Below are positions 4,197-40,622 of a stretch of DNA of 64,000 nt, in pieces. Within the stretch, counting starts at the first letter, position 1. Each line of letters opens with the position of its first letter. A program made the position numbers and the translations under genes. Under the pieces are notes generated by a model. That model made no database searches. It saw only the letters and a list, made by a program, of their open reading frames with translations, and was not told the origin of the DNA. Origin of the DNA: Flavobacteriales bacterium (lineage in GTDB: Bacteria > Bacteroidota > Bacteroidia > Flavobacteriales_F > PHOS-HE28); the NCBI GenBank assembly GCA_016713865.1, contig JADJOG010000045.1, forward strand, positions 34,898-98,897, written 5' to 3'.

Positions 4197-4640
4197 ATGA
4201 AGAAGGGCACACACGAGAAGAGCATCAGTGAACTCGAAGGCTGGACTTGGACGGACCCAATTCCCTCCGCTGATGACTCGTCCGGTACCGTGCTCCGCTT
4301 CTACCGACTCCACCGAACGCCGATCAAGGATCTGGATCTCGGTGATCTGAGGTTTCTGATCGGTCAGAACGCCGCGTTGGAGCACCTCGTGCCCATGGCA
4401 TTGGATCAACTGAGGAAGAACCTGTTCGTCGAAACAGACTACTACCCTGGTGACCTTCTTCAAGCTCTGTTCTCGATCAACGACGAACCGAGTTATTGGA
4501 CCGCACATCCGGATCATCGCCAGATATTGATCCGACTTTACGAGGACAACATGAGACAAACTCCAACTGTGGAGATGTCCTCAGGTGACTTGAAGAAGAT
4601 CGAACGTGAGTATGAGAAGTTCAAAGCACAGTTAGTCTGA
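4197..4640 (+). CDS. hypothetical 147-aa protein, lower-GC insertion between the two metH genes
   Basis: Intact ORF at about 52% GC in a ~65% GC background. It sits exactly between the Hcy-module gene and the pterin/B12 module gene. No confident family match; a small acidic helical protein. Confidence 0.55.
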
Positions 4641-4641
4641 C

Positions 4642-7176
<2,535 letters not shown>

Positions 7177-22576: not shown

Positions 22577-22744
22577 ATGCCGCGTCACCGCACTCCCGCT
22601 CTGCGAGCATCGAAGACCTGCATGTCCTGCGGCCTTCCATTCCAATGGCGCAAGAAATGGGAGCGGGTCTGGGATGAAGTGAAGTACTGCAGCGACCGAT
22701 GCCGACAGCACAAGAGCCGCGCGCAGCGCATACTGTCCGCCTGA
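22577..22744 (+). CDS. DUF2256 domain-containing small protein
   Basis: A 55-aa ORF absent from the supplied track: [55 protein letters not shown]. Its CxxC...W.KKWE..W..VKYCS..CR pattern matches DUF2256, which is classically found beside FeS-BCP/CryPro photolyase genes. Confidence 0.65.
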
Positions 22745-24278
22745 TCCTGGGCGATCAACTCAATTCCGAGCATAGCTGGTTCCAGCATGCGAGCGGGGAT
22801 GTGCTGCATGTCATCATGGAGGTGCGGCAGGAAACTGACTATGCATGGCATCACATCCAGAAGGTGCTGGGCTTCTTCGGTGCGATGCGCCGTTACGCGG
22901 ATGAGCTGCGCGCTCAGGGCCATCGTGTGCTATACCTCTCGCTCGACGACGAGCGCAATACGCAATCCATCTCAGGGAATCTGACGTGGGTGATAGCGGC
23001 ATGTGGCGCGGAACGGTTCGGTTATCAATTGCCCGACGAGCATCGGCTGGATGAGCAGTTGAAGGCTTTCGCATCAGCATGCGGCTGCGTTGTGGAGTTG
23101 TCCGATACCGAGCACTTCATCATCGACCGTCATGAGCTCACCGCGCTTTTCAAAGGCAAGAAGCAATACCTGATGGAGCGTTTCTATCGCGTGATGCGCG
23201 AACGCACCGGTCTGCTCATGGATGGCACGCAACCGTCAGGCGGGCGCTGGAACTACGATGCGGAGAACCGAGGCCGGCCACCGAAGGGTCATCTGGCGCC
23301 GCCGCCGCTGCTCTTCCAGCACGACCTGAGCGGTATTGAAGCCATGGTGATGGCGCATGGCGTGACGTCCATCGGTACGGTGGAAGCCGCGCGCTTCTCC
23401 TGGCCAATTTCGCGCGCTGAAGGCCTGGAGCTGCTCACGTATTTCTGCGAGCACCTGCTGCCCCTCTTCGGCACCTATCAGGATGCGCTCATGCCCGGCC
23501 AATGGGCCTTGTACCATTCGCGCATCAGCTTCGCGATGAACGTGAAGATGATCGGCCCACTGGAGGTGTGCCGCGCCGTGGAAGCCGCGTGGCGTGCTGA
23601 TCCCAAGGGCATAAGCATCGCGCAGGCCGAGGGCTTCATTCGGCGATCATCGGTTGGCGCGAGTACATGCGCGGGGTGTATTGGGCACAGATGCCGCGCT
23701 TCGCTTCGCTCAACTTCTTCGGGCACGAACGTCCGTTGCCTTCGTGGTACTGGACCGGCGAAACGCGCATGGCCTGCTTGCGCGATGCGATCAAGGGTAG
23801 CCTCACCAACGCTTACGCGCACCACATCCAGCGCCTCATGGTCACCGGCAACTTCGCACTGCTCGCCGGCGTGCATCCCGACGAAGTCGATCAGTGGTAC
23901 CTCGGCATCTACATCGATGCGCTGGAATGGGTGGAGATCACCAATACGCGTGGCATGAGTCAGTTCGCCGATGGCGGCATCGTGGGCACGAAGCCTTATG
24001 TGAGCAGCGGCGCTTACCTGAATAAGATGGGCCACCACTGCGGTAGCTGCTATTACAAGGTGAGTGAGCGAACAGGTGAGCGTGCCTGTCCGTTCAATTC
24101 GTTGTACTGGCACTTCCTCGCGCGCAACCGTGCAAGGCTCGAAGCCCCGGATGCACGTCCAGGGCTGATGGCGCGCATGGCGATGCCCTTCCGCATCTGG
24201 GACGGCATGGCATCGCATGCGCGCGAGGAGCTGCTCACGAAGGGAGAAGAATTGCTGAAACGAATCGAAGAGCTATGA
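22699..24278 (+). CDS. cryptochrome/photolyase family protein of the FeS-BCP / CryPro type ((6-4) photolyase PhrB-like, COG3046), one frameshift
   Basis: The N-terminal part [11 protein letters not shown]... and the C-terminal part with the Fe-S cysteine cluster [27 protein letters not shown] are both present. A single A missing in cggcaGatc near 23655 explains the split between ORFs 22699..23958 and 23667..24278. Confidence 0.75.
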
Positions 24279-25549
24279 GCAGAGCGATCATCTGGTTCCG
24301 GAACGATTTGCGTTTGGCGGATAATCCCGCACTGATCGCGGCGCTGGCTGCGCATGATGAAGTGTTGCCGGTCTATGTGCTCGACCCGAGGCAGCATGGC
24401 CCATCGCCATTCGGTTTCGAGCGCAGCGGCCCGCATCGTCGGAAATTCTTGCATGAAGGTCTTGCAGACCTTGATGAGCAGTTGCTCGCCAAAGGCAGCG
24501 CGCTCCATGCTTTCGCGGGACAACCGGCGGATGTGCTTCGGCGAGTCGCGCGGATGTGGGATGCCTCATTCGTTTACACTCAAGGGCTGAACGCACGCGA
24601 GGAAGTGCTTCAGGAATTGGAGGTGTCGCGCGAACTGCCGCTTCTGCTGCATGGAGCGTCCACCATGCTGCTGCCAGGCGATCTGCCCTTCGGCCTGCGT
24701 GAGCTGCCCGAAGTCTTCACCGACTTCCGCAAAGCCGTGGAGAAAGGCAGCCCGGTGCGCGACACGCTTCCTGAACCAGTGAGCATTCCCACACCGCGCG
24801 AATGGCGTACCCGACCGCTCACGGTGGAGGAGCTCCCGATTGGCAAGCCTCGAATCGATCGCCGCGTCGTGCTCGATTTCCAAGGCGGGAGAGCTGCGGC
24901 ACTGGCGCGCTTGCGCCACTATTTATGGGATACCCGTGCCATCGCGTTTTACAAGGAGACGCGCAACGGGCTCATCGGAGCCGATTACAGCAGCAAGCTG
25001 AGCCCTTGGCTGGCATCGGGAGCGCTATCTCCACGCGAGGTCTTCCACGAGGTGAAGCGATTCGAGTCGATCCACGGCGGCAACGAGAGCACGTATTGGA
25101 TGATTTTCGAGCTGCTCTGGCGCGATTACTTCCAATTCATCGCGGCCAAGCACAAGAGCGCGCTGTTCGCCGCGGGCGGAATACGGGGCTCGGCGCTAAG
25201 GGGCAAGAAGGAGGTTGAGCTGTTTGAGCGATGGATCAATGGGCGGACCGGCCAGCCCTTCATCGATGCGAACATGCGCGAGCTTGCAGGAACCGGTTGG
25301 ATGAGCAATCGCGGCCGACAGTGCGTGGCAAGCTTCCTCGCGCACGACCTCGGGCTCGATTGGCGCATGGGTGCGTGGTGGTTCGAGCGCAAGCTCATCG
25401 ACTACGATCCGTGCAGCAACTGGGGCAACTGGCAATACGTGGCAGGCGTTGGCAACGATCCGCGCCAAGGCCGCCGCTTCGATCCCGAACGGCAAGCGAA
25501 CACTTATGATTCGGATGGTGCATTCACGCGGCTGTGGAATGCCGATTGA
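24275..25549 (+). CDS. DASH-family cryptochrome (Cry-DASH, photolyase/cryptochrome family)
   Basis: [20 protein letters not shown]...; the FAD-binding C-terminal motifs WREF/YF-like (LWRDYFQF) and GWMSNRGRQCVASFL. Confidence 0.85.
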   Translation: MSRAIIWFRNDLRLADNPALIAALAAHDEVLPVYVLDPRQHGPSPFGFERSGPHRRKFLHEGLADLDEQLLAKGSALHAFAGQPADVLRRVARMWDASFVYTQGLNAREEVLQELEVSRELPLLLHGASTMLLPGDLPFGLRELPEVFTDFRKAVEKGSPVRDTLPEPVSIPTPREWRTRPLTVEELPIGKPRIDRRVVLDFQGGRAAALARLRHYLWDTRAIAFYKETRNGLIGADYSSKLSPWLASGALSPREVFHEVKRFESIHGGNESTYWMIFELLWRDYFQFIAAKHKSALFAAGGIRGSALRGKKEVELFERWINGRTGQPFIDANMRELAGTGWMSNRGRQCVASFLAHDLGLDWRMGAWWFERKLIDYDPCSNWGNWQYVAGVGNDPRQGRRFDPERQANTYDSDGAFTRLWNAD

Positions 25550-25916
25550 GAAATGGATCAACGAACAAGGCAGCAGCAACTCCCAAAACGTACATCACCA
25601 GATCCATCGATTGGAAGGTGTCGCCCAGCAGCAGCTTCGCCCAAGTGGTGTGCGATAGACCGAGGTGATTGATCAACCCGGCTGCTTGCGCGCTTTCAAC
25701 CGCAAAGGCGAATAGCAGCGCACCGGTGGCCACGCGCTTCGCTGGCCAGCTGAAAAGCGCACGCACGCTGAAGTGCATCAGGCACACAACGAGCAGGTCG
25801 CCGAGATGGAAGCGGATGAAAGGCTGTCGAACATGAAAGGCGATGTACAGCTCGCCGCCGAGTAGCAGCAACGCCACAAGCGCATGCTTCGGGCTGAACC
25901 GAATTGGCAACTTCAC
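25524..25916 (-). CDS. small integral membrane protein (DUF2809-like)
   Basis: 130 aa with three to four predicted TM segments. It converges on, and overlaps by 26 nt, the Cry-DASH 3' end, and is 3' of the NuoF-like gene. Confidence 0.45.
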   Translation of the reverse strand: MKLPIRFSPKHALVALLLLGGELYIAFHVRQPFIRFHLGDLLVVCLMHFSVRALFSWPAKRVATGALLFAFAVESAQAAGLINHLGLSHTTWAKLLLGDTFQSMDLVMYVLGVAAALFVDPFLNRHSTAA

Positions 25917-27106
25917 GCGAAGTACTCGTCGAGCTCCGTGCGGAAATACTGCATGGCATTCTTCACACCCAGCGGAAGGCCGCCGCCCAACGCGCAGAGC
26001 GATCCGATCTCCATGGTCTCGATCAGGTCGTTGAAGAGCGCGCGATCGATCTTCTTGCCGTCCTGAGCGCTAAGGATGAGCTCCTTGCCGCGCGTGCTGC
26101 CGATGCGGCACGGGAAGCACTTGCCGCAGCTCTCCAGCGCGGTGAACTCGAAGAGGTGCTCGAGGTACTTCACCATGGGGAAGTCCTGCGGGATGCTGAG
26201 CACGCTCGCGTGGCCAAGCAGGAAACCCTCACGCTGGAAGCTCTCGAAGTCGATGCTGAGCGCGTTGATCTTCTGTAGCGGCACAATGCCGCCGAGCGGG
26301 CCGCCAATGTGCAGTGCTTTCGTAGGTCTCGCGAATCCGCCGCCGAGCTCATCGATCACCTTCGCGAGCGGGGTGCCGCACTCCACCTCATAGATGCCGG
26401 GACGTTTGAAGCCGCTGTCGAGGCACACGAGCTTGCTGCCGTTGCTCTTCTCGCTGCCAAGTTTGGCGAAGGCCGCCCCGCCGTTGGTGATCACCCAAGG
26501 CACGCACGCCAATGTCTCAACGTTGTTCACCACGGTTGGACGATTGAACAGGCCCTGCTGCGCGGGGTAGGGCGGCCTCGTGCGCACCTCGCCACGTTTG
26601 CCTTCGATGCTGTTCAGCAGCGCGGTCTCTTCGCCGCACACATAAGCGCCTGCGGCCTTGATCACTTTGAAGCGGTAGTTGAAGCCACTGCCCTTGATGT
26701 TGTTGCCGATCCAACCTTGTGCTTCCAGATCGCGCACGGCTTGCTTCACGATCTCCACCGCTTCGGGATACTCCGCGCGGATGTATAGCACACCCGTGTC
26801 GGCACCCACGCAATAGCCCGCGATCATCATTCCGAGCAGCACGCGGTGCGGGCGCTGTTCTAAGAGGTATCGATCACTGTACGCGGCGGGGTCGCCCTCG
26901 TCGGCGTTGCACACGATGTATTTGCGAGGCGTGCCATTGCCGGTTGTGTCTTCCGCGTTGCGACAAGCCTCCAGCTTGAAACCCATTGGGAAGCCCGCAC
27001 CTCCGCGTCCACGGATGGTCGCCACTTTTATTTCGTTCAGCACATCCGCGCTGTTGCTTTTCAGCACCTGCTCCCAAACGGCGTAGAATTCCTCCAATCG
27101 CGGCAT
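25913..27106 (-). CDS. NuoF-like NADH-binding flavoprotein (51-kDa subunit family, SLBB and 4Fe-4S domains)
   Basis: IRGRGGAGFPMGFK, the FMN/NADH-binding region, and the C-terminal ESCGKCFPCRIG 4Fe-4S motif. Confidence 0.8.
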   Translation of the reverse strand: MPRLEEFYAVWEQVLKSNSADVLNEIKVATIRGRGGAGFPMGFKLEACRNAEDTTGNGTPRKYIVCNADEGDPAAYSDRYLLEQRPHRVLLGMMIAGYCVGADTGVLYIRAEYPEAVEIVKQAVRDLEAQGWIGNNIKGSGFNYRFKVIKAAGAYVCGEETALLNSIEGKRGEVRTRPPYPAQQGLFNRPTVVNNVETLACVPWVITNGGAAFAKLGSEKSNGSKLVCLDSGFKRPGIYEVECGTPLAKVIDELGGGFARPTKALHIGGPLGGIVPLQKINALSIDFESFQREGFLLGHASVLSIPQDFPMVKYLEHLFEFTALESCGKCFPCRIGSTRGKELILSAQDGKKIDRALFNDLIETMEIGSLCALGGGLPLGVKNAMQYFRTELDEYFA

Positions 27107-27624
27107 CGGTGCGGTGAGGATGGGGAGGCCATGGAACTCGCGACATGGTAGGTGTCCATGTTGGGGAAGGAAGAGGCTGCACCAACCCCCAACCCCTCAA
27201 CCCTCAACCCACGACCAACAACTTCCGCTAATCGTTCAATCGCATCACCACTGAAATTCAATCCGCCCACATTGAACGCGCTGTTCTCGTGGCAGCGCCC
27301 CAAGCAGCACATGTGGCCGATCTCTTCCGGCTTGAAGTGCTTCGCCAGCGCGTGATGCACTTTGTCTTGTGTTCCCGCTACCAGGCAGGCGCTTCCGTTG
27401 CACACGTATGCCTTCTTGCCTTGGTTCTCCTTCTTCAGGAAATCATAGAAGGAGCTCGTGCCGTAGGTGATGGCCTCGCCGATGAGGAAGTCATCGGCAA
27501 TTTGCGTGAGCGCACGATCTTCTGGAGAGCCATCGATTGAGGCGGCTTTCTGCAGGCGTTCCCAAAGTGGATCCTCGAGTTCCTTGCCATCCCGGCCGGA
27601 AAGTGATGAGATGTTCTTCGACAT
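27061..27624 (-). CDS. NuoE-like thioredoxin-fold [2Fe-2S] protein, probably fused to or frameshifted into the NuoF-like gene
   Basis: The ATG at 27624 (MSKNISSLSGRDGK); the 2Fe-2S pattern YVCNGSACLVAG...CCLGRCHENSAF (C-x4-C...C-x3-C). The C-terminal Gly-rich linker is encoded by a G-run tract. The ORF overlaps the NuoF-like start by 45 nt in another frame. Confidence 0.65.
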   Translation of the reverse strand: MSKNISSLSGRDGKELEDPLWERLQKAASIDGSPEDRALTQIADDFLIGEAITYGTSSFYDFLKKENQGKKAYVCNGSACLVAGTQDKVHHALAKHFKPEEIGHMCCLGRCHENSAFNVGGLNFSGDAIERLAEVVGRGLRVEGLGVGAASSFPNMDTYHVASSMASPSSPHRCRDWRNSTPFGSRC

Positions 27625-27718
27625 GCGGTTCCAAGGTAGGGATGCGGTGGAATGCACGTGCATGAACGGATGAGCCGGGCTTAATGCCCGGCTCATCCGT
27701 TGAAGGAGATGCGTGCTG

Positions 27719-28696
27719 CTACCTCTTTGTCGGAGCGCGTTGTGGAGGCTGCGAGGGTGGTGCGGTCGGGCTGCTGCGCGAGGGCTTGGGGGCGGGCGCA
27801 GTGCGATGCGGAGATCGGTTAGGTGCGGTGCGCTCGGCCGGTTTCCGCTCGGGCTTGCCTGGGGTCCTCACGGGCGGCGTCGGCTGTTTACCGCGATCAA
27901 TGCCGGGTGCGCGATCATCCCTTTCCATCGGGCGGGTGCTCGGCGCACGCTGCGCGGGGCGCACATCGTTCCTGCGCTGCACCGTGCCCGACATGCTGCG
28001 ACGGTGCATGTAAACGCTGTTGGCGTGATTCACGCGGCAGAAGTGAACCGGCTGGTACCACCCCCAATAGGGTCGAGGGTAGCCCCACCACATGCTCCAG
28101 CCCCATGGGCGCCATGGGTTCCACCATCCGGGGTAGTAGCCCCAGTACCAGGGCGATGACCATTCCCACCAACCTGGTCCGTAGCACCACTGCACACAAG
28201 GCCACGCCCATACGTTCATCCAAACCGTGACCTGTGCAGCAGGACCGAGCGGTCCTCCTCGTTTCCCTTCTTGCTCTTTTATCGATTCCGAAGGCTCTAC
28301 GATGGTGTTCTCCGGGTAGAGCATGGCATCGCCAAGGATCTGAAGCGTAACCGTTGCTTCTGCGCCACGCTCCATCTGAATAGTGGCTATGTCCTGCTGG
28401 TCGTCCTTGCCGAATGCGGCTTGAAGCACCACTACGCGCGATTCAGCATCGGCGCTAGCGCGCACATGGATGAAATCGACTTCACCATTTCCGTCAAGGT
28501 CCAGATTGTTCACCCCATTGCCGGTGGCGTTAATGGACTTTTCGAAGGCATCGAGGTCCTTGCTCTGCCGGAAAAGCTCCAATGCGCCGCGAAGGCTGAA
28601 CTGATCACCGGCGAGTCCGGTGCTATCTGCTTGTTGCGGCGTGGCCACAGCGGCGAGGCCAGCGCTCATGCTGGCGAGGAGAAGGAGGGTCTTCAT
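27719..28696 (-). CDS. secreted hypothetical protein with a Trp/Gly/Tyr-rich aromatic region and a Pro/Arg-rich C-terminal tail
   Basis: Signal peptide MKTLLLLASMSAGLAAVA, the block VWMNVWAWPCVQWCYGPGWWEWSSPWYWGYYPGWWNPWRPWGWSMWWGYPRPYWGWY, then a low-complexity P/R/A/T tail. Confidence 0.6.
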   Translation of the reverse strand: MKTLLLLASMSAGLAAVATPQQADSTGLAGDQFSLRGALELFRQSKDLDAFEKSINATGNGVNNLDLDGNGEVDFIHVRASADAESRVVVLQAAFGKDDQQDIATIQMERGAEATVTLQILGDAMLYPENTIVEPSESIKEQEGKRGGPLGPAAQVTVWMNVWAWPCVQWCYGPGWWEWSSPWYWGYYPGWWNPWRPWGWSMWWGYPRPYWGWYQPVHFCRVNHANSVYMHRRSMSGTVQRRNDVRPAQRAPSTRPMERDDRAPGIDRGKQPTPPVRTPGKPERKPAERTAPNRSPHRTAPAPKPSRSSPTAPPSQPPQRAPTKR

Positions 28697-28729
28697 GGCA
28701 TTTGGTGTCAGGTTTCGCTTGAGCAATGA

Positions 28730-29560
28730 TCATACCGGCGACACCGCTTTGGTGAGCATTGGGCATCGAATTCGGCGAAGCACACGCTCCGTGGTGCTGC
28801 CACGAAGGGCGTCCAGGAAGCCGTCGTGCCCCTGCGTGGGCATCACGATCAAGTCGGGTTTCCATTCAAGAGCCGCGTGGAGGATGCCGTCCACCACCTC
28901 GCCTTCGCGTTGCACTAGGCTCCATTCCCAACCGGGTCGTTGCGGGGCATGGTCAATCACATGTCCAAAGTCATCCCCTCCGATGCTGAGGAGCATGAAT
29001 CGCGCATCATCCACCTTCAGCACCTCAGCGATCCATGACGCCAGTGCGATGGCTTCGCTTGGTGATGGAGTGCTGGCGATGGGCAGGAGGATGCGTTGCA
29101 TTCTCATGACGCCCGACGATGGATCGAAGAAGCCCTGTGCATTGCTGGGGACGATAAGCGTTGGCAAGTGTGCCTCCCGCATGAGCGGCTCAGCCACGCG
29201 GCGCCCGAGCCAATCCATGGCTTCATCGCGCTGGTGGGTGTGAAGCACCACGAGGTCGGCGCGGTGATCCTTGAGGTAGGCTAGGCAGGCTTGGAGCGGA
29301 TCGCCGCCTTCCAGGATCTTGCGCACGCCGATGCCCATGTCGCGCAGTTCCTTGGATCCGTGCGCTTCGGTGATCACGCCCCAGCGCTTCAACGTGCTCC
29401 GCACTTGTGGCAACTCTTGCACGGATGTTTCGGCGCTTGAGCCTACATGCATCAATGTAAGAGTGGCGGATGCCGCCACCGTTAGGCCTAGCGCATGATA
29501 GAATGCAGGCATGGCCTCTTCTTCCAGATTGGTGGGGTGGAAGATGCGTTTGATCTCCAT
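28730..29560 (-). CDS. universal stress protein family protein (tandem UspA domains)
   Basis: Two Usp-like halves (VVLHTHQRD...LIVP and DLIVMPTQGHDGFLDALRGSTTERVLRRIRCPML). Start chosen at MEIKRIF. Confidence 0.75.
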   Translation of the reverse strand: MEIKRIFHPTNLEEEAMPAFYHALGLTVAASATLTLMHVGSSAETSVQELPQVRSTLKRWGVITEAHGSKELRDMGIGVRKILEGGDPLQACLAYLKDHRADLVVLHTHQRDEAMDWLGRRVAEPLMREAHLPTLIVPSNAQGFFDPSSGVMRMQRILLPIASTPSPSEAIALASWIAEVLKVDDARFMLLSIGGDDFGHVIDHAPQRPGWEWSLVQREGEVVDGILHAALEWKPDLIVMPTQGHDGFLDALRGSTTERVLRRIRCPMLTKAVSPV

Positions 29561-29905
29561 TGGCTTGTGCATGCTGCTAAGGTTTGGTCGGCTTTCATGC
29601 GCTAAGGTGATGCCCGTCATTCAATCGGCAGAGTTGGATTCAAATGGCATGTCTTGCGGGGGAAGCACGAAGGGGATGGACGGTCGTGCGCTACACACGC
29701 GCGTGTTGACAAGTGCGCACCGCTGCGAACAGCATCCCAAGAATGCCCCGATACGTTTGCCCGGCACCCTACCTGAACGCGCGTGCGCTTCTGCGCCATG
29801 GTGCATCGGTGGCTCTCCACACCGGTCATCGGGGACTGAAGCGTCCATTGGAGAAGTCCTCCATTGGTTTCGAGCCGAGGGCGGTGCTCACAAGCCGTTC
29901 GGCAC

Positions 29906-32900
29906 ATGATGGAACATCGACCCCTTGCCCTGGTGAGCAGCGCATCGCGCTCAATCCTTTCCCGGTTCATTAAGCCTCTGATCGCGTCGCTGGCCGCATT
30001 GCTGCTTTGGCAAGGCGAAGCGCGCGCCACCCACGCCATGGGCGGCGAGCTCACCTATGCTGGCATCTATCGCGTGCGCCTGAATTTCTATCGCGACTGC
30101 AATGGTGTGGAGGCGCCAACGAATTGCAGCAACGGCCGGCAATTCCGGTTGCGCAGCACGGCATGCGGGAACATCACGCTTAATCCATGCTTCGGTCTGG
30201 ATGGCGTCGACGTGGTTACTCCGCTATGTTTCGGAGCAGCCGACCGCTGCACCAATTCCAGCGCGCAGTACGGAATCCAGCGGTACCGCTACAGCGCGGT
30301 AGTGAACCTGAGCGCCTACGCGGCATGCGGCAGCGACTGGGTGATCGATTGGGACCTATGCTGTCGCAACAACGCGATCACCTCGCTCAACAATCCCGGT
30401 TCGCGCAACTTGTACCTGTACGCTAATCTGCGCCAGACCGTAACACCCTGCAATAACTCACCTAGCTTCCTGAACACGCCCACCCCGTTCGCCTGCGTGG
30501 GCCAGCAAGTGAGCTATAACCACGGCTTCAACGATGTGGATGGCGATTCACTCTCCTTCTCCCTGGTTGGCGCTTTAGGCTCGAATGGCAGCGCGATCCC
30601 CTACAATGCAGGGTACTCGGCCACGCAGCCGGTGGTTACCAGCGGCGGCGCCAATGCTGTGCAGATCAACCCGGTGACGGGGACCATCACCTTCGTTCCC
30701 AGCATCCAGCAGTTCGCTGTGGTGACCGTGCGCGTGCGCGAGTTCCGCAACGGCGTGCAGATCGGCGAACTGCTCCGCGACGTTCAGTTCGCGATCATCG
30801 CTTGCAGCAACAGCCTGCCACAAGCCACCGGCGTGAATGGCACTGGCACCTATACCTATAATGTGTGCGCAGGGGAGACTTTCTGCTTCACCGTGAACAG
30901 CAGTGATGCCGATGCCGCGCAGGTTGTGACCATGGCTTGGAACAATGGTATTCCGGGCGCCACCTTCACGACAACTAACGCTCCGCGTCCCGTTGGCACG
31001 TTCTGCTGGACACCTGGTGTCGGCGACATCGGCCAGAATCTGTTCAGCGTGAATGTGCAGGACAATGCCTGCCCGCTGGTTGGCCAGAACAATTTCGGCT
31101 TCGCGGTTCAGGTTACGCCGCCTTTCACGCCTGCTAATGCTGGCCCGGATCAGAATGTATGCGGCGCAACAGCGACGCTTGCAGGGCTGTTGCCATGGCC
31201 CGTGCAAGGTACTTGGTCCGTCATTAACGGTACCGGCACCTTCGCCAATGCGAATAGCCCGACCACCACGGTGAGCGGGTTGAGCCCGGGCACGAACACC
31301 TTACGATGGACCGTGAACTATGGCACCTGCGGCACCACGAGCGACGATGTGGTGATCATGAGCTTCAACCCTGCGCAGCCCGTGGCGAACGCTGGCCCCA
31401 ACCAGAGCCTTTGCCTGCCCAGCACCAGCACCGCATTGGCGGCGAATACCGCAGCCGCACCCGCTACGGGCCAATGGACCTTGGTGAGTGGCACGGGCAG
31501 TTTCGTGAATGCGAACAGCCCAACGACTCAAGTGAACGGTCTCAGTGTAGGTGCCAATGTCTTCCGCTGGACCATCAATAACGGGCCCTGTGGCGCACCC
31601 ACGAGCAGCAATGTCACGGTTTTCGTTTTCAGCAACGTGCAGCCTGCGGCGAATGCAGGCCCAGACCAGCAATTGTGCGCGCCTACGACCAGTGCCACGC
31701 TAGCTGGTAACGGCGTCATATTCCCTGCAACCGGAACTTGGACGGTTGCGAATGGCACGGGCACCTTCGTGAATGCGAACAGCCCATCCACCCAAGTGAG
31801 CGGGCTCAGCATCGGGGTGAATACATTCCGATGGACCATCAGCAACGGCCCTTGCCTGCCACCTACCACGCAGGATGAAGTGAACGTGGTGGTCTTCAAC
31901 CCGGCCAGCCCCAACGCGAATGCCGGACCCAACCAGCAGGTGTGCAGCAGCAGCACAACGCTTGCGGGCAATGCGCCATTGGCGCCGGCCACGGGGACCT
32001 GGAGCGTGATCAGCGGCACCGGCACATTCGCCAATGCGAATAGCCCAACCACTTCGGTGAGCGGGCTCTCCTTCGGCAACAACGTTTTCCAATGGACCTT
32101 GAGCAATGGTCCTTGCGCCAACGGCATCACCAATTCGCAGGTGACCATCACGCGCTTCGATCCCAATACGCCCGCTGCCGATGCAGGACCCGACCAGGAG
32201 CTCTGCACGATAGGCGCCACCGGATTCGCATCGGCTACCATGGCGGCGAGCGCAGCATCTGCACCGGCAACCGGCTCGTGGAGCATCATCAGCGGTCCTG
32301 CGGGAGCATTGATCACCACGCCTTCGAGCGCTGCGACCACAATCACCAACCTCGCGGTAGGCACCCACACCTTCCGCTGGACGGTGAACAATGGCCCTTG
32401 CATTCCGCCGACCTCCACGGACGATGTGGTGATCCGCGTGTACGACCGTAACGCACCCGTTGCGAACGCTGGCCCCAACCAGAACCTGTGCGCGCCTGTT
32501 GCAAGCGTGACGCTCGCCGCCAACGCAGCAACGGCACCTGCGATCGGCACATGGACGCTGGTGAGCGGTCAAGGAGTATTCGCCAATGCCAACAGCCCAA
32601 CCACCACGGTAACGGGCATGGCGATCGGCACGAACGTTTACCGGTGGACCATCGTGAATGGCCCATGCCCCGGAGCTATCACGTCAAGCACGGTTACCAT
32701 CACGCTCTTCGATCCCTCTGTTGCGGCGGCCAATGCCGGTCCGGATCAATCGCTCTGCGGCGCCACAAGCACTGTTATGGCGGCCAACGCCGTTGCGGCG
32801 CCTGCCGTTGGCACATGGAGCGTGGTGAGCGGCACCGCCACCATCAGCAATCCGAATAGCGCCACCACCGCCATCACGGGGCTGGGTACGGGCAGCGTCA

Positions 32901-35900
32901 CCTTGCGCTGGACGATCAGCAACGGGCCTTGCGGAAGCACGAACGACGATGTGGTGATCCTGAATTTCGACCCGAACAATCCTGTCGCCAACGCTGGCCC
33001 GGATCAGGAGATCTGTGTTCCTGTTGCGCCGAACGTGGTGTTCATGGCGGGTAGCCCGGTCACCTTCCCTGCGGTAGGCACATGGAGCGTTGTAAGCGGT
33101 CCGCCCGGCGCGGCCATCGCGAATGTGAATAGCCCGACAACGCAGATCGGGAACCTCACGGTTGGAACCTATGTGTTCAGCTGGACGGTTGACAACGGTC
33201 CATGCCCGAGCGGTATCACGACAGACAACATGACGGTGCGCGTGTTCGACTTCGGCAATCCCGCAGCGGATGCAGGCCCGGACATCTCGCTGTGCACCAC
33301 TGATGGTACAGTGACCATGGCGGGCAGCAACCTGATCAGCCCGGCTACCGGCCAATGGACCTTGGTGAGCGGCACTGGTGTGATCACGAGCCCTGGCAGC
33401 CCCACCACGACAGTTATCGGCCTGCAAGTGGGCCAAAGCATTTTCCAATGGACCGTTAGCAACGGACCCTGCAGTGGTGTGACCACGGATCAGATGAGCA
33501 TCTTCATCTACGATCCGAACAACCCGAACGCGAGCGCTGGACCGAACCAGGCTTTCTGCACACCGATCACCAGCACCACTATGGCCGGCAGCGCGGTCAC
33601 ATTCCCCGCGCAAGGCACATGGTCGCAAAGCGGCGGACCAGCAGCCACGATCGCCAGCCCCAACAGCCCCACCACGGCGATCACGGGATTGCAAGTAGGC
33701 GTGAGCCAATTCACCTGGACAGTGAACAATGGCGTGTGCCCCAACGGTGTCACCAGCAGCAGCATGACCATTACGCTGGCCGATGGTGATGCGCAGGCCG
33801 CCGCTGCCGGACCCGACCAGAGCGTTTGCGGCACGAGCAGCAGCGTGTTGATGGCGGCCAATGCGCCCACGGGTGTAGCTACCGCTAGTTGGAGCGTGGT
33901 TGCAGGAACCGGTTTCTTCAGCAACATCAACAGCCCCACCGCCACGGTAACGGGGATGAGCATTGGCTTGAACACATTCCGTTGGAGCATCGACAATGGC
34001 GCGTGCGGCATCACATCGGATCTGGTCGACATCTATGTGTACGATCCGAACAACCCAGTCGCGAATGCAGGTGCGGACCAGCAGCTGTGCACGCCCACCA
34101 CGAGCACCACGCTCACGGGCAGCAATTTGATTTTCCCCGCAGTGGGCCAATGGACCTTGGTGAGCGGCAGCGGCACTATTGCCAACCCCACCAGCCCCAG
34201 CACGGGCGTGAGCGGCTTGAGCATCGGCGCGAACGTGTTCCAATGGCAGGTGAACAATGGCGCTTGCCCCAGCCCCATCACCACCGATCAGGTAACGGTG
34301 TTCGTTTACGATAACGATGCGGCCGCGGCGAATGCCGGACCCGATATCGATGTGTGCACACCCACTAACAGCGTGAGCATGGCTGCCAACAGTCCGGTTG
34401 GCGTAGCGGTTGGGACTTGGACGCTCACCGGCGGCGCGGGCGGCACGGTAACCAATCCGAACAACCCGAACACCACGATCACCAACCTGCCCGTGGGCAC
34501 GCATACCTACGCTTGGACCATCGTGAACGGCAACTGCGCCACTACCAGCGATGAAATGGTTATTCGTGTGTTCAGCGCGCTGAACCCGAACGCCAACGCG
34601 GGCAACGATCAGCAGCTCTGCTTGCCTGCCACCACCACGACGCTGCAAGGCAGCAACGTGATAAGCCCGGCAACCGGGACGTGGACGCTGGTGAGCGGAA
34701 GCGGCACGCCCACCAACCCGGCTAACCCGAACAGCTTCGTGATCGGCTTGGCCGTTGGCGAGAACGTGTTCCAGTGGAACGTGAGCAATGGCCCTTGCGC
34801 CAACTCGCTCACAACGGATCTGGTGAGCGTATTCCTCTTCGATGATCAGCAGCCGCCTGCAGATGCTGGCGCCGACATTGAGATCTGCACGCCTGAGAGC
34901 GAAGTGACGCTCAGCGGCAACGATGTGATCTTCCCGGCAGAGGGCTTCTGGTTCCAAGTGAGCGGCTTCGGCACCATCACCGATCCGAGCGATCCCAACA
35001 CCACAGTTACCGGTCTGCCTGTTGGCGAGCACATTTTCCGGTGGGAGATCAGCAATGGTCCTTGCGGCGTGACGAATGATGATGTCGCCGTGCGTGTGTA
35101 CGATGTGAACAATCCTGTCGCGGATGCAGGGGCCGGATCAGGAGCTCTGCTTGCCGCAGACCAGCACCACCATGGCAGGCAGCAGCTTGATCTTCCCTGC
35201 CACGGGCCTATGGACGCTCGTGAGCGGACAAGGATCCATCGGCAGCCCCGGTTCGCCCACTACGGATATCACCAACCTGGCCGTTGGCGAGAACGTGTTC
35301 CAGTGGACGGTATTCAATGGCCCATGCAACGAGCCCACTGTTGATGTGGTGAGCATCTTCGTATTCGACGACCAGCAGCTTGATGCAGATGCTGGCGCGG
35401 ATCAGAGCCTATGCACGCCAACGAACGTCACCACGCTGTTCGGCAATGCGCTCACCTTCCCCGCCACGGGCACATGGACCTTGGTGAGTGGGCAGGGCAC
35501 CATCACTGATCCCGCTTCGCCGGTCACCACGGTTACCGATCTCGGTGTAGGCATCAATGTGTTCCGCTGGACGATCAGTAACGGACCGTGCCCCAACGGC
35601 CTCACGCAGGATGATGTGACCATCTTCCTGTTCGACCTGAACAATCCGCCCGCGAACGCAGGTCCGGATCAAGAGCTCTGCACGCCGCAGACCAGCACCA
35701 ACCTCGCGGGCAATACGCCCACGGTGCCTGCTATCGGCACCTGGTCGCTGATCAGCGGGCAGGGCGATATCACTGATCCGAACGATCCGAACACGCTGGT
35801 GACGAACCTGGCCGTGGGTGAGAACATCTTCCAATGGATCTTCGACAACGGGCCTTGTGAGACCAGCGGCAGCAGCGATCTGGTGAGCATCTTCGTTTAT

Positions 35901-38900
35901 CTCGATGAGAATCCTCTCGCGAACGCAGGACCAGATCAAGAGCTCTGCACGCCGAACATCACCAGCACCTTCCTGCAGGGCAGCGCCGTCACTTTCCCTG
36001 CGGTGGGCACATGGACATTGGTGAGCGGCACGGGCACCATCGCTCAGCCGAACAACCCCAACACGCAGGTATTCGATCTGGAGATCGGTTCCAGCGTATT
36101 CGAGTGGTCGGTTGACAACGGGCCTTGCGCAAGCGGCATCACCACCGATCAAGTGCTCATCGAGATCTTCGATGAGAACAATCCGAGCGCGAATGCAGGC
36201 GCTGATCAGAACCTGTGCACCAGCGATGGAACAACGGCTCAGTTGAGCGCCAGCGCGGTCACCTCGCCCGCGATCGGCACATGGACCCTTGTGCAGGGCC
36301 AAGGCACCTTCACGGATCCTAACGACCCCAACACCACGCTCACCAACATGGGCGTTGGCGTGATCGTGCTCGAGTGGTCCGTTGACAACGGCGCCTGCCC
36401 CAACGGTCTCACCAGCGACCAGCTCATCATCAACCTGTTCGACGAGAACAATCCGGTGGCCGATGCGGGTCCGGATCAAGAGCTATGCACGCCCACCGGA
36501 ACAACGATCGCCACCAACCTGCAAGGCAGCGCGATCATTGTTCCGGCATCCGGCACATGGACCGTTGTGAGCAGCACTGGCATTGTCCTGAACCCGAATG
36601 ACCCGAGCAGCGCTGTGGTCGGCCTTGGTGTCGGCGAGCACATCTTCCAATGGAGCGTGTTCAATGGCCCCTGCGACCCAAGCAGCACCACCGACATCGT
36701 GACCATCCGTGTTTATGATGAGAACAACCTCGATTCCGATGCGGGCCCTGATCAGCAAGTATGCACGCCGCTCACCAGCGCGACCATGGCTGGCAGCCCC
36801 ATCATCTTCCCTGCTGTTGGAACATGGACGCTGATCAGCGGGCAAGGCGACATCGCCGACCCCAACGATCCGAACACGGACATCACCAACCTCGGCCTCG
36901 GGGTGAACGAGTTCCAGTGGGAAGTGTACAACGGCAGCTGCCCCAACAGCCTCACGAGCGACCTGGTGACCATCACCTTGTTCGATGCCCAAGCACCTGC
37001 GGCTGATGCCGGGCCCGATCAAGAGCTCTGCTTCCCGATGATGCAGCAACCATCACGGGTAATGCACCGGTTGGAGCCGCCGTTGGCACATGGACGATCG
37101 TGAGCGGGCCAGGCAACATCACCGATGCGGCCTCGCCAGTGACCACTGTGACCAACCTGCTCGTTGGCGAGACCATCGTGCGCTGGACCATCACCAGCGG
37201 CGTGTGCGTGACCACCGACGACGAGGTGAGCATCCGTGTGTACGACCCGAACAATCCGCCGGCTTTCGCGGGCCTCGATCAAGAGCTGTGCGTGCCGCAG
37301 GACAGCGTGTTCATGGCAGGCAGCTCGTTGATCTTCCCCGCGGTGGGCACATGGAGCGTGATCGCTGGTGCGGGCACGCCGGTGAATCCGAACGATCCGC
37401 TCACGCTGATCGAGCAGATCGCCATCGGTGTGAATACTTACCAGTGGAGCGTCTATAACGGTCCCTGCGGAAGCAGTCTCGATGAAGTGAGCATCACGCT
37501 CTACGATGACACCACTGCTGCGGCCAATGCTGGTCCGGATATCGAGCTGTGCCTTCCCATCACCGACACCTTCCTGCAGGGCGAGCAGCCACCTGCTCCG
37601 GCCGAAGGGACTTGGACCTTGATCGCGGGCACGGGCTTCATTGTGAATCCCAACGATCCCAACACGCAGGTCACCGGACTTTCGCAGGGAACCAACGTGT
37701 TCGTGTGGACCCTTGAATGGGACCCCTGCCCCAACAACGGCATACTCACCGATACGATGGAGGTGCGCGTGTACAACCCGAACGCGCCATTGGCCGATGC
37801 CGGTCCGGACCAAGCGCTCTGCGATGCAACCAGCACCACGATGGTGGGCAATGTGCCCGAGGTTCCCGGTGTTGGAACTTGGACTCAGGTGCTCGGCGCC
37901 CCTGCAACCATCGTATCGCCTAACGATGCCGCAACGGCGATCACCGGCCTAGGTGTTGGCAGCTATCAGTTCGTGTGGGAGATCTACAACGGCCTTTGCG
38001 GCTTCGGACCGCCTAGCCGCGACACCGTGCAGGTTGATATCTACGACGGCGACGCTCCTGCAGCGCAAGCCGGCAACGACATCAGCTGGTGCACGCCCAC
38101 CAACAGCGCCGTACTCGTGGCCAATGATCCGGTATTCCCTGCGGTTGGCACCTGGACCTCGCTCTCCGGAACCGGCACCATTGCCGACCCGAACGACCCG
38201 AATACGGCTGTATTCAACCTCGGAGTGGGCCAGCACGATTTCCTGTGGACTATCGACAACGGCCCTTGCGGCAGCAGCAGCGACCAGATCAGCGTGTTCA
38301 TCTACGACGGTGATCAGGCTGCAGCCAATGCAGGTCCCGATCAACAGTTGTGCACGCCCACGACGAGCTCGACCCTGGCCGGCAACAGCGTCACCTTCCC
38401 CGGAACGGGTCAATGGAGCGTGATCGCGGGCACGGGCGCATTCGCCGATGCGAGCAACCCCAATACGGGCGTCAGCGGCCTTAGCATCGGCACCAACACC
38501 TTCCGCTGGAGCATCACGAATGGTCCGTGCGGCGATACGCAGGACGATGTGACGATCACGGTGTACAACGATGCGCAACCATCGGCGAATGCCGGTGCGG
38601 ATCAGCAGCTGTGCACGCCAACGAGCAGCACCAACTTGCAAGGCAGCGCGGTGACCTTCCCGGCAACCGGCAACTGGGTGTTCGTGCAGGGCAGTGCTAC
38701 CCTCAGCAGCTCCAGGCAGTCCCAATGCAACACTCAGCGGTCTCACCGTTGGAACCTATGTGCTGCAATGGGTGGTCGATAACGGACCGTGCGGCACCAG
38801 CACCGACAACGTGACCATTGAGGTCTTCGACGGAACAGCGGCTCCGGCGGCGGCTGGTCCGGATCAATCGTATTGCACGCCCATCACGCAGCAAGTGAGC

Positions 38901-39641
38901 ATGCTCGCCAGCGCGGTTGCTGCACCCGGCGTGGGTACATGGTCAATCGTAAGCGGCTCTGCAACCATCGCGCAGGACACCGATCCCTTCACTGTGATCA
39001 CCAACCTGGGCCTTGGGGCCAACGTGTTCCAATGGACCGTTGACAATGGCGCATGCGGCACCACCAGCGATCAGATCACGATCATGGTGTACGACCACAC
39101 CGTGCCTGCGGCGAATGCCGGTCCGAGCCAGCAGTTCTGCCAGGATGTGAGCACCACGACCCTCGGCGCAGTGCCCGCCACCAGCACCGCGAGCGGAAGC
39201 TGGAGCCTGTTGAGCGGCAGCGGCAACATTGAGCAGCCCGGCAACCCGAACAGCGCGGTCAACGGCCTTGCGCTTGGCTACAACGTGTTCCTGTGGACGC
39301 TGAACAACGGCGACTGCGGCACCACCACCGATACGATGACGGTGTATATCAAGGACTGCCTCACGATCAAGATCCCCGATGCCTTCTCACCCAACGGCGA
39401 TGGCACCAACGACGAGTTCGTGATCACCAACATCGAGAGCTATCCGAACAACACCTTCCAGGTATTCAACCGCTGGGGCAACAAGGTGTACGAGGCATCG
39501 CCTTACACCAACAAGTGGGACGGCACCAGCCAGTTCGGATCGGCATTCAAGGAAGGACTGCCGGAGAGCACCTACTACTACATCCTGGACCTCGGCAACG
39601 GCAGCGATGCCTACACCGGATTCATCTACCTGCGACGCTAA
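29906..39641 (+). CDS. giant cell-surface adhesin (SprB-like organisation) of ~3240 aa with about 32 tandem ~85-aa repeats and a C-terminal T9SS type B (gliding motility-associated) sorting domain, carrying 3 single-base frameshifts
   Basis: Signal peptide (IKPLIASLAALLLWQGEARA), a Cys-rich N-terminal domain, and repeats of consensus NAGPDQxLCxPxTSxTLAGN..FPAxGTWTLVSGxGTxxNPNSPTTxVTGLxVGxNVFxWTVxNGPC...TTDxVTIxVFD. The C-terminus is IPDAFSPNGDGTNDEFVI...VFNRWGNKVY...STYYYIL. Four ORF-track pieces (29864..35344, 35124..37103, 37100..38782, 38694..39641) are contiguous in homology, with 1-nt indels near 35128, about 37045 and about 38705. Confidence 0.75.
31120..39350 (+). repeat. in-frame tandem array of ~255-nt (about 85-aa) coding repeats inside the giant adhesin gene
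   Basis: The NAGPDQ / GTW(T/S)(L/V)VSG / NGPC landmarks recur at a period of about 255 nt. The copies differ at the nucleotide level by roughly 30-50%. Confidence 0.7.
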
Positions 39642-39684
39642 ATCATGCACGGGTGCGCGGTAACGTGCTCCAACAGATACACCG

Positions 39685-40620
39685 ATGAAGATGAGAACCG
39701 CCAAACGATGGATCGGCAGCGCGCTGGGGATGCTCCTGGGCACCGTGCTCCTGGCCCAGCAGGACCCGCAGTTCACCCAGTACATGTTCAACATGCTGGC
39801 GCTGAACCCGGCCTACGCTGGAAGCAGCGACCGCATCAGCTTGAAGGCGCTGAGCCGCCACCAATGGGTGGGCTTCGAGGGCGCGCCCACCACGCAGACG
39901 CTCACCATACACAGCCCGGTATTCAACGAGAGCTTCGCGCTGGGCGGCACCATCATGCGCGATGCGCACGGACCCATCACGCAATACACCTTCATGGTCG
40001 ATGCGGCCTATCGCATCTTCATGGGTGATCAGAAGCTCGCCTTCGGCCTCAAAGGCGGCCTCAACCTCTTCCAAGGGAAGTTCGCCGAGCTGAATCCGCA
40101 GACCGCGGGCGATCAAGTGTTCCAGCAGAACGTGAACTCGAAGCTCGATCCGCAATTCGGCTTCGGCATGATGTGGTACAGCGACCGCCACTATTTGGGC
40201 CTGAGCACTCCGAAGCTCCTGCGGACGGAATTCTTCAAGGAAGACTCCCTCGCCTTCGTGAGCTCGCCAGGGCAGCGCCCGCACTATTTCCTCACCGGCG
40301 GCTACGTGTTCGATCTCGGTCTCTACCACAAGTTCAAGCCCACCTTCCTCCTGAAAGCCGTGCAGGGCGCGCCCATGAGCTTCGACCTGAGCGCGAACGT
40401 GCTCTTCTATGAGAAGTTCTGGCTCGGCGCCATGTATCGTCACAAGGACAGCGTGGGCCTGATGGCGCAATACCACATCACCGACGATTTCACCGCGGGC
40501 TATGCCTACGACATCACGCTCTCGCCGCTGCGCAACTATAGCGGCGGCAGCCACGAGATCATGCTCGGGTATGAGTTCGGCAAGCGCGCCAAAGGAATCC
40601 GTTCACCACGCTACTTCTGA
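39685..40620 (+). CDS. PorP/SprF family type IX secretion system membrane protein
   Basis: The signal peptide then QQDPQFTQYMFNMLALNPAYAGS is the hallmark PorP/SprF N-terminus, and the ~310-aa beta-barrel size fits. It lies immediately 3' of the type-B CTD adhesin, as sprF does in the sprB operon. Confidence 0.8.
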   Translation: MKMRTAKRWIGSALGMLLGTVLLAQQDPQFTQYMFNMLALNPAYAGSSDRISLKALSRHQWVGFEGAPTTQTLTIHSPVFNESFALGGTIMRDAHGPITQYTFMVDAAYRIFMGDQKLAFGLKGGLNLFQGKFAELNPQTAGDQVFQQNVNSKLDPQFGFGMMWYSDRHYLGLSTPKLLRTEFFKEDSLAFVSSPGQRPHYFLTGGYVFDLGLYHKFKPTFLLKAVQGAPMSFDLSANVLFYEKFWLGAMYRHKDSVGLMAQYHITDDFTAGYAYDITLSPLRNYSGGSHEIMLGYEFGKRAKGIRSPRYF

Positions 40621-40622
40621 TC

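Follow-up and report, generated by a model that had tools for sequence, protein, structure and literature searches.

A split NuoE/NuoF-like gene in a Flavobacteriales contig probably encodes the fused diaphorase subunit of a formate dehydrogenase

A 64,000-nucleotide stretch of contig JADJOG010000045.1 (positions 34,898 to 98,897, forward strand; assembly GCA_016713865.1, Flavobacteriales bacterium), referred to below as the window, carries a minus-strand locus in which a NuoE-like and a NuoF-like open reading frame (ORF), to judge from their sequences, are one gene of ~569 residues (NuoEF). The predicted protein, of Fdh1B or fused FdsG-FdsB type, probably serves as the diaphorase (beta) subunit in a soluble, NAD+-linked formate dehydrogenase containing molybdenum or tungsten (Mo/W), and the gene appears as two ORFs most likely as the result of an indel in the assembly. 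An earlier note on this DNA had described the locus as a stress-type operon of five genes, encoding UspA, a Trp-rich secreted protein, NuoE-like and NuoF-like proteins and a small membrane protein.

Domains were called with Pfam using gathering scores and with NCBIfam using equivalog cut-offs. Related loci, designated L001 and so on, comprised 80 loci from contigs of one genome per species and further loci obtained by exact-protein look-up. Neighbouring genes were clustered across the loci, and the detection of fdhA was refined by tblastn.

The ORF listing for 22-34 kb contained five consecutive minus-strand ORFs (Table 1) with Pfam matches above the gathering score to Usp (twice), 2Fe-2S_thioredx, Complex1_51K, NADH_4Fe-4S and DUF2809, and in this respect the gene content given by the earlier note was correct. 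The NuoE-like ORF matched 2Fe-2S_thioredx with 28.9 bits (cut-off 24.8). The NuoF-like ORF matched Complex1_51K with 149 bits and NADH_4Fe-4S with 66.7 bits; its match to SLBB (23.1) lay under the gathering score of 27. Nearly all of the best 120 NuoF-like homologues were 558-614 residues long, and most contained PF01257 together with PF01512 and PF10589. A small number fell outside this length range, mostly on short contigs. The homologues read without interruption across the site of the split, as …NMD(A/T)YH(V/A)(G/A)(T/S)SMA(N/S)PIL(T/M)A(P/T)MP(S/R)L(A/E)EFY…, where the window gives …SSMASP in the first frame and continues with PILTAPMPRLEEFY in the second.

In DNA alignments with 14 relatives (L005-L009, L021, L025, L026, L031, L033, L041, L053, L059 and L064) every relative had one extra base at GGCCTC-CCCATCC, corresponding to the C-run of the window. 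The split falls within the inter-domain linker, just upstream of a conserved in-frame ATG. Restoring one base gave a single ORF of 569 residues running from a homologue-supported start (MSKNISSL) to the stop of the NuoF-like ORF, in line with the frameshift in a poly-C tract that the earlier note had suggested. Because the homologues are fused and read through the break, and because the added base restores the full-length ORF, the two ORFs were treated as one gene, and the gene count at the locus is four, not five.

NuoEF was assigned to formate dehydrogenase because its relatives place it beside fdhA, with FdhD and formate-tetrahydrofolate (THF) ligase among the neighbours. In 50 related loci fdhA was found downstream of NuoEF on the same strand; the distance was mostly 0-3 kb and never more than 9.2 kb. 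The loci come from Cyclobacteriaceae, Roseivirga, Ekhidna, Saprospiraceae, Vicingaceae, Salibacteraceae, Aureivirga marina and many uncultured Flavobacteriales. This downstream gene (930-990 residues) contains Fer2_4, Fer4_Nqo3, Molybdop_Fe4S4, Molybdopterin and Molydop_binding domains, holds a CARVCHSP active-site stretch and scored 779 bits against the formate dehydrogenase alpha model TIGR01591 (cut-off 666). The recurrent neighbours of NuoEF in the relatives were FdhD (PF02634), formate-THF ligase, DUF7009 and 5-formyl-THF cyclo-ligase, with FdhD and formate-THF ligase often upstream.

The NuoEF of the window nests within the tree of the fdhA-linked orthologues. The cofactor motifs VCNGSAC, CLGRC, GRGGAGFP, CNADEGDP, ESCGKCFPC and SLCALG are kept in 75-76 of 76 orthologues, the window included; they provide the four 2Fe-2S cysteines, the flavin mononucleotide (FMN) loop (GRGGAGFP), the NAD(H) motif (CNADEGDP) and ESCGKCxPC…C for the 4Fe-4S cluster. 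The best matches of the NuoF half in the PDB were HoxF, HydB, NfnB and FdsB chains (E = 1e-100 to 1e-91), ahead of the complex I Nqo1/NuoF chains (1e-85 to 1e-66).

In the Roseivirga and Cyclobacteriaceae clusters a DUF7009 gene of 120 residues lies between fdhD and NuoEF, with formate-THF ligase upstream (L061, L063, L066, L070, L071 and L073, at ~9.0-10.0 kb). DUF7009 may be a formate dehydrogenase accessory protein.

From what is known of the family, the NuoF-like half would bind FMN and NAD(H) and carry a [4Fe-4S] cluster, and the NuoE-like half would carry an off-pathway [2Fe-2S] cluster. Formate would be oxidized at the Mo/W-bis-molybdopterin guanine dinucleotide (bis-MGD) centre of the alpha subunit, from which electrons would flow by way of the alpha Fe-S chain, the [4Fe-4S] cluster and FMN to NAD+; the reaction could also proceed in reverse. 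NuoEF is read as a separate transcription unit, with DUF2809 possibly co-translated, and the Usp and Trp-rich genes as an independent pair moved alongside by rearrangement and set off by a strong hairpin. fdhA is no longer adjacent in this lineage; the alpha subunit would be encoded elsewhere, and the ancestral job would presumably still be done since selection on NuoEF is unrelaxed.

This type of diaphorase is already known, the member described here being new. In MeFDH1 of Methylorubrum (Methylobacterium) extorquens AM1, a tungsten enzyme (PDB entries 7E5Z and 7VW6), the beta subunit is a fused FdsG- plus FdsB-like diaphorase with FMN, [4Fe-4S] and [2Fe-2S] (PMC10869683), and Fdh1B thus resembles the window gene in holding a NuoE/FdsG-like and a NuoF/FdsB-like part in one chain. 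Its partner is an alpha subunit of ~950 residues with N-terminal NuoG-like Fe-S and bis-MGD domains (PMC10869683), and the same two-gene arrangement is seen in the relatives of the window gene. The two systems, compared by architecture, differ in that one is from Alphaproteobacteria and the other from Bacteroidota and in that the alpha gene is not adjacent in the lineage of the window.

In FdsABG(D) of Rhodobacter capsulatus and Cupriavidus necator (PDB entries 6TG9/6TGA and 6VW7) FdsG and FdsB are separate subunits, whereas their counterparts are fused in the window gene. The alignment of the NuoF half with FdsB is full-length (E ~1e-94), the cofactor motifs are the same and FdhD and an FdsA-type alpha subunit accompany the relatives of the window gene; nothing resembling FdsD was noticed. 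The NuoE half is very divergent, matching FdsG with E = 0.13, and the NuoE-like ORF also scored far under the FdsG cut-off in NCBIfam. NuoE/NuoF (Nqo2/Nqo1) of complex I have the same folds and the same FMN, [4Fe-4S] and [2Fe-2S] motifs, but the window gene is fused, falls under all NuoF cut-offs and occurs in no nuo operon among 95 loci. The top-scoring solved structures were diaphorases of the HoxF, HydB and StnB type, from NAD-linked hydrogenases and transhydrogenases (8OH5_B, 1.7e-100; 8A6T_B); the window gene differs from these in being without their extra N- and C-terminal ferredoxin domains and in having a formate dehydrogenase context with no hydrogenase genes nearby.

Several results weigh against the assignment to formate dehydrogenase. 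The NuoE half matched solved NuoE, FdsG and HydC chains weakly (E = 0.02-0.9). MeFDH1-beta was absent among the 60 PDB matches listed; the likeness to it is one of architecture. Neither fdhA nor fdhD was found in the window (tblastn; Pfam), and the partner was unseen for this organism. Finally, no fdhA was found within ~10 kb of NuoEF in ~20 loci, which form two groups of the NuoEF tree and include the nearest relatives of the window.

In the window, no fdhA was present within 25.9 kb downstream or 36 kb upstream of NuoEF. In the neighbour-joining NuoEF tree group A consisted of L001, L013, L015, L017-L020, L022 and L049, and group B of the window, L002-L011 (in part) and L053. An orphaned diaphorase would account for this pattern: groups A and B would have lost fdhA and kept NuoE/F as an NADH:acceptor oxidoreductase or as an input module for a new partner. 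Besides the missing fdhA, the flanking genes in most fdhA-less loci are on the opposite strand, making NuoEF monocistronic, and purifying selection is strong, with a median ratio of nonsynonymous to synonymous substitution (dN/dS) of 0.10 in the fdhA-less groups versus 0.14 in the fdhA-linked Flavobacteriales. The search with fdhA returned ~60 Flavobacteriales-type clusters and NuoEF more than 120 clusters at >=83% identity, which points the same way. Loss of the catalytic subunit nevertheless remains the somewhat doubtful reading of the two groups. Of the 200 columns conserved at >=95% in the 50 fdhA-linked orthologues, none was changed in group B and one in group A, so no release from the alpha-subunit interface was seen.

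Unlinked functional pairs are made plausible by the spacing observed elsewhere: insertions between NuoEF and fdhA reach 7 kb (L088/L089) and 9.2 kb (L014), and stand-alone fdhA genes with no NuoEF within 8 kb were found in L090 (8001-10865), L091 and L092. Such stand-alone loci show that alpha and beta genes of this family need not be linked. In the FdhA phylogeny L090 and L092 fall among the fdhA-linked lineages. Given the unrelaxed selection, the growing insertions and the stand-alone loci, a relocated and still partnered fdhA was favoured over a lost one.

Attempts to tie the two genes together within single genomes gave a mixed outcome. By accession proximity NuoEF (MBK9274808) and FdhA (MBK9274811) are linked in one genome, and no genome of groups A or B was tied to an fdhA among the cluster members listed. 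The match lists of NuoEF and FdhA had no shared contig among those of 4.48, 3.43, 1.93 and 0.74 Mb, a weak negative given that they hold cluster representatives only. The P0129 contig (187,657 bp) was considered as that of L006 (187,561 bp) and rejected; it is a different contig, with a linked pair.

Some further features of these loci were recorded. The stand-alone fdhA genes of L090-L092 have DUF5694, a LytTR/His-kinase pair and OmpA as neighbours. In uncultured Flavobacteriales the region upstream of NuoEF shows a conserved order of a multihaem cytochrome of ~650 residues, MOSC, a Vut_1 transporter, GNAT, a divergent dihaem cytochrome c of ~328 residues and NuoEF (L001-L004, L009-L011, L015, L017, L089 and L093), regardless of whether fdhA is adjacent. 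The NuoEF proteins P0460 and P0074 (MBK7084958 and MBK7084522) have accessions 436 apart and lie on contigs of 189 and 304 kb; they may represent one metagenome-assembled genome with two NuoEF copies, or two strains binned together.

The reading of the split as an artefact draws on the state of the rest of the window. MetH, the housekeeping gene for B12-dependent methionine synthase at 4636-7153 (+), appears as four pieces in frames 1, 2, 0 and 2 that give consecutive Pfam fragments (Pterin_bind 1-164; Pterin_bind 164-244 with B12-binding_2; B12-binding; Met_synt_B12, E = 1e-114), with at least three frameshifts within 2.5 kb. The DPRP-type photolyase gene at 22699-24278 (+) consists of two overlapping ORFs and has an uncompensated 1-nt gap at ~23644 relative to L064, outside a homopolymer. 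In the region 29864-42800 (+) a giant K319L-like PKD-repeat adhesin gene is spread over at least 5-6 ORFs in different frames (29864-35344, 35124-37103 and 37100-38782 among them); the ORFs from 29864 onwards probably derive from a single gene or from two, broken up by indel errors of this kind. An OmpA/CarboxypepD_reg protein is encoded after the adhesin ORFs, at 40623-42800.

For NuoEF, dN/dS between the window and its relatives ranged from 0.06 to 0.13 across the 17 nearest loci and did not exceed 0.17 in the 40 loci listed. Because the window is indel-rich and NuoEF otherwise looks fully functional, an assembly indel is the most likely origin of the split, much likelier than a real frameshift. 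Other split or frameshifted genes in this window are suspect for the same reason.

A genuine frameshift in a gene decaying after the loss of its catalytic partner is an unlikely explanation. It would draw together the absence of fdhA nearby, the frameshift itself and, in L064, the closest relative by synteny (an Illumina co-assembly), an independent 7-nt deletion that destroys the FMN loop between GFPMG and FKLEA (L064:10001-11700, after ~10660). This deletion adds to the points held against the assignment above, and may reflect decay in this small lineage or an assembly error. Against decay, indels also occur in MetH and the DPRP-type gene, which are hardly all dead; a comparison of the window with L064 gives a dN/dS of 0.058 (dS 0.58), so no decay has built up; the 1.7 kb of NuoEF hold no further stops or indels; and the remaining copies of group B are all intact. 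Even with a real break, separate NuoE-like and NuoF-like chains could assemble, as FdsG and FdsB do. Fission into functional NuoE and NuoF genes was also considered; it is possible in principle, as the break lies in the linker before the conserved ATG, and was set aside as unnecessary given the error rate of the window.

The earlier note had read the locus as a stress operon coupling an NAD(P)H diaphorase to Usp, the Trp-rich periplasmic protein and a membrane protein. All five ORFs do lie on the same strand with short spacers, and Usp and Trp-rich genes are neighbours of NuoEF in L064 too, but as an account of the locus this is very improbable. Usp and Trp-rich genes stood upstream of NuoEF in only this one of 84 loci (tblastn), and there a minus-strand S9 peptidase gene, divergent, intervenes between Trp-rich and NuoEF and DUF2809 is absent. 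The Usp/Trp-rich pair occurs with no NuoEF near in L085/L086 (5001-6035), where the Trp-rich gene follows a 279-residue Usp gene by a giant PKD/CHU_C adhesin, as in the window. In GCA_016721005.1 the Trp-rich and Usp genes are near each other on JADKJM010000019 (L087), and NuoEF is on a different contig, JADKJM010000016 (L011). In the five-ORF combination, separate units have come to lie side by side in one lineage.

The packing of the genes fits this. Of the gaps of 4 nt or less, or overlaps, that had been proposed throughout, the sole overlap, between NuoEF and DUF2809 (GTGA, 4 nt), stands; with homologue-supported starts the spacer between Usp and Trp-rich is ~33 nt, and the stop of Trp-rich is separated from the start of NuoEF by 94 nt. 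The latter spacer contains a strong hairpin, a further point against a single operon (-49.7 kcal/mol, z = -7.13, none of 200 shuffled sequences folding as well). It has no U-tract on its 3' side, and it is likely to be a transcript boundary or stabilizer. A repeated element was ruled out, since the hairpin occurs once in the window and is absent from 84 related loci. The hairpin was not called in a scan for T-tract terminators, and a sigma-70 promoter scan gave nothing useful, the models being ones that may not suit Bacteroidota.

The Usp protein scored 102 bits against PF00582 over two stretches and 21 bits against the NCBIfam UspE model (cut-off 227); by its sequence, it is classed as a tandem Usp and not UspE itself. 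Usp homologues adjoining Trp-rich genes are 278-279 residues long. The Trp-rich protein has a signal peptide, a folded N-domain, a W/Y/P-rich middle part and a basic Pro-rich tail. In the alignment the N-domain loop NNLDLDxxGxxD is invariant, and the motifs VNVWxWP and SPWYWGYYPxWWRPWRP are also present. The ORF had no Pfam or NCBIfam match, and none of at least 217 homologue clusters across Bacteroidota has a Pfam domain. The AlphaFold2 model was confident only for ~residues 30-135, and Foldseek gave no fold match for the predicted structure in the PDB. The Trp-rich gene usually adjoins a tandem Usp gene and a giant type IX secretion system (T9SS) adhesin gene. Usp and Trp-rich are a separate conserved pair, unlinked to NuoEF.

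The DUF2809 protein scored 69.7 bits against PF10990 (cut-off 29.3) and contains an ExxQ motif (AVESAQA). DUF2809 is the 'Skillet' family of lipocones, which have the ExxQ motif and are predicted to act in the cell envelope as transferases of lipid or isoprenoid head groups (PMC12419801). A DUF2809 gene follows NuoEF with the same overlap arrangement in two of 84 loci (L005 and L007), so that the pairing is confined to three close genomes. If NuoEF were an orphan, the translationally coupled DUF2809 protein might be its partner in the sub-lineage of the window.

A displaced complex I N-module or the HoxEF diaphorase of a bidirectional hydrogenase has next to no chance of being right: NuoE-like and NuoF-like domains are present and HoxF, HydB and Nqo1 are among the best PDB matches, but the protein missed the NuoF cut-offs (TIGR01959, ~360 versus 558.65; NF010120, 276 versus 389; NF008436, 261 versus 749), the NuoE models (23-27 bits versus 141-142) and HoxE (NF005747, 29-33 bits versus 224), and the orthologues adjoin fdhA and never nuo or hydrogenase genes. 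Searches of the window (Pfam on ~45 ORFs; tblastn with FdhA) found no complex I gene and no catalytic gene of a hydrogenase or formate dehydrogenase, in agreement with the earlier note, which had reported no NuoG or membrane-arm partner nearby. It had also proposed a soluble diaphorase module as in hydrogenase or formate dehydrogenase units; the formate dehydrogenase kind is borne out by the 50 fdhA-linked relatives, and the hydrogenase kind is not, as the HoxE score indicates.

The coordinates of the features are presented in Table 1. The minus-strand genes converge on the photolyase cluster, as had been stated; its members are SDR, an ORF of 192 residues with no Pfam match, DUF2256, the DPRP-type photolyase and the Cry-DASH-type photolyase. 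The locus is a mosaic, consisting in order of the adhesin, the Usp/Trp-rich pair, the hairpin, NuoEF with DUF2809 and the convergent photolyase cluster. Other genes of the window, from Pfam, encode peptidases, MetH, OmpA, TolC-like proteins, T9SS adhesins, TPR proteins, a radical-SAM/SPASM enzyme, Mfd and an MFS transporter, among others.

Table 1. Features of the NuoEF locus (positions in the window)
Feature	Position	Strand	ORF as listed	Remarks
Tandem Usp gene	28730..29572	-	28730-29620	~280 residues, two Usp domains; maximal ORF to 29620
Trp-rich secreted protein gene	27719..28696	-	27719-28726	No Pfam or NCBIfam match; start backed by homologues
Hairpin	27665..27701	-		Perfect 16-bp stem, 5-nt loop; spacer between Trp-rich and NuoEF
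Fused NuoEF gene	25913..27624	-	27061-27696 and 25913-27106 (overlapping, uncorrected)	569 residues once corrected
C-run with missing base	27122..27125	-		CCCC on the minus strand; inter-domain linker, between …SSMAS and PILTAPMP…
DUF2809 small membrane protein gene	25524..25916	-	25524-25916	PF10990; GTG start
Cry-DASH-type photolyase gene	24275-25549	+		From Pfam; minus-strand genes converge on it

With these results a false lead can be set aside: the locus holds neither a new stress operon nor a free-standing fragment of complex I, and an ordinary diaphorase gene, as we read it, stands beside unrelated genes. The Trp-rich secreted proteins form an uncharacterized family across Bacteroidota that has no known domain and is paired with tandem Usp. 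A more far-reaching proposal, which can be put forward only tentatively, is that a whole clade of uncultured Flavobacteriales of sludge or freshwater type lost the catalytic subunit and kept the NuoEF diaphorase unchanged as a monocistronic gene; if true, this would mean an undescribed role as a stand-alone NADH:acceptor oxidoreductase or as an input module for another partner. What remains of evolutionary interest is that, in two groups of Flavobacteriales, the beta gene either no longer adjoins fdhA or persists after its loss, with selection on it unrelaxed.

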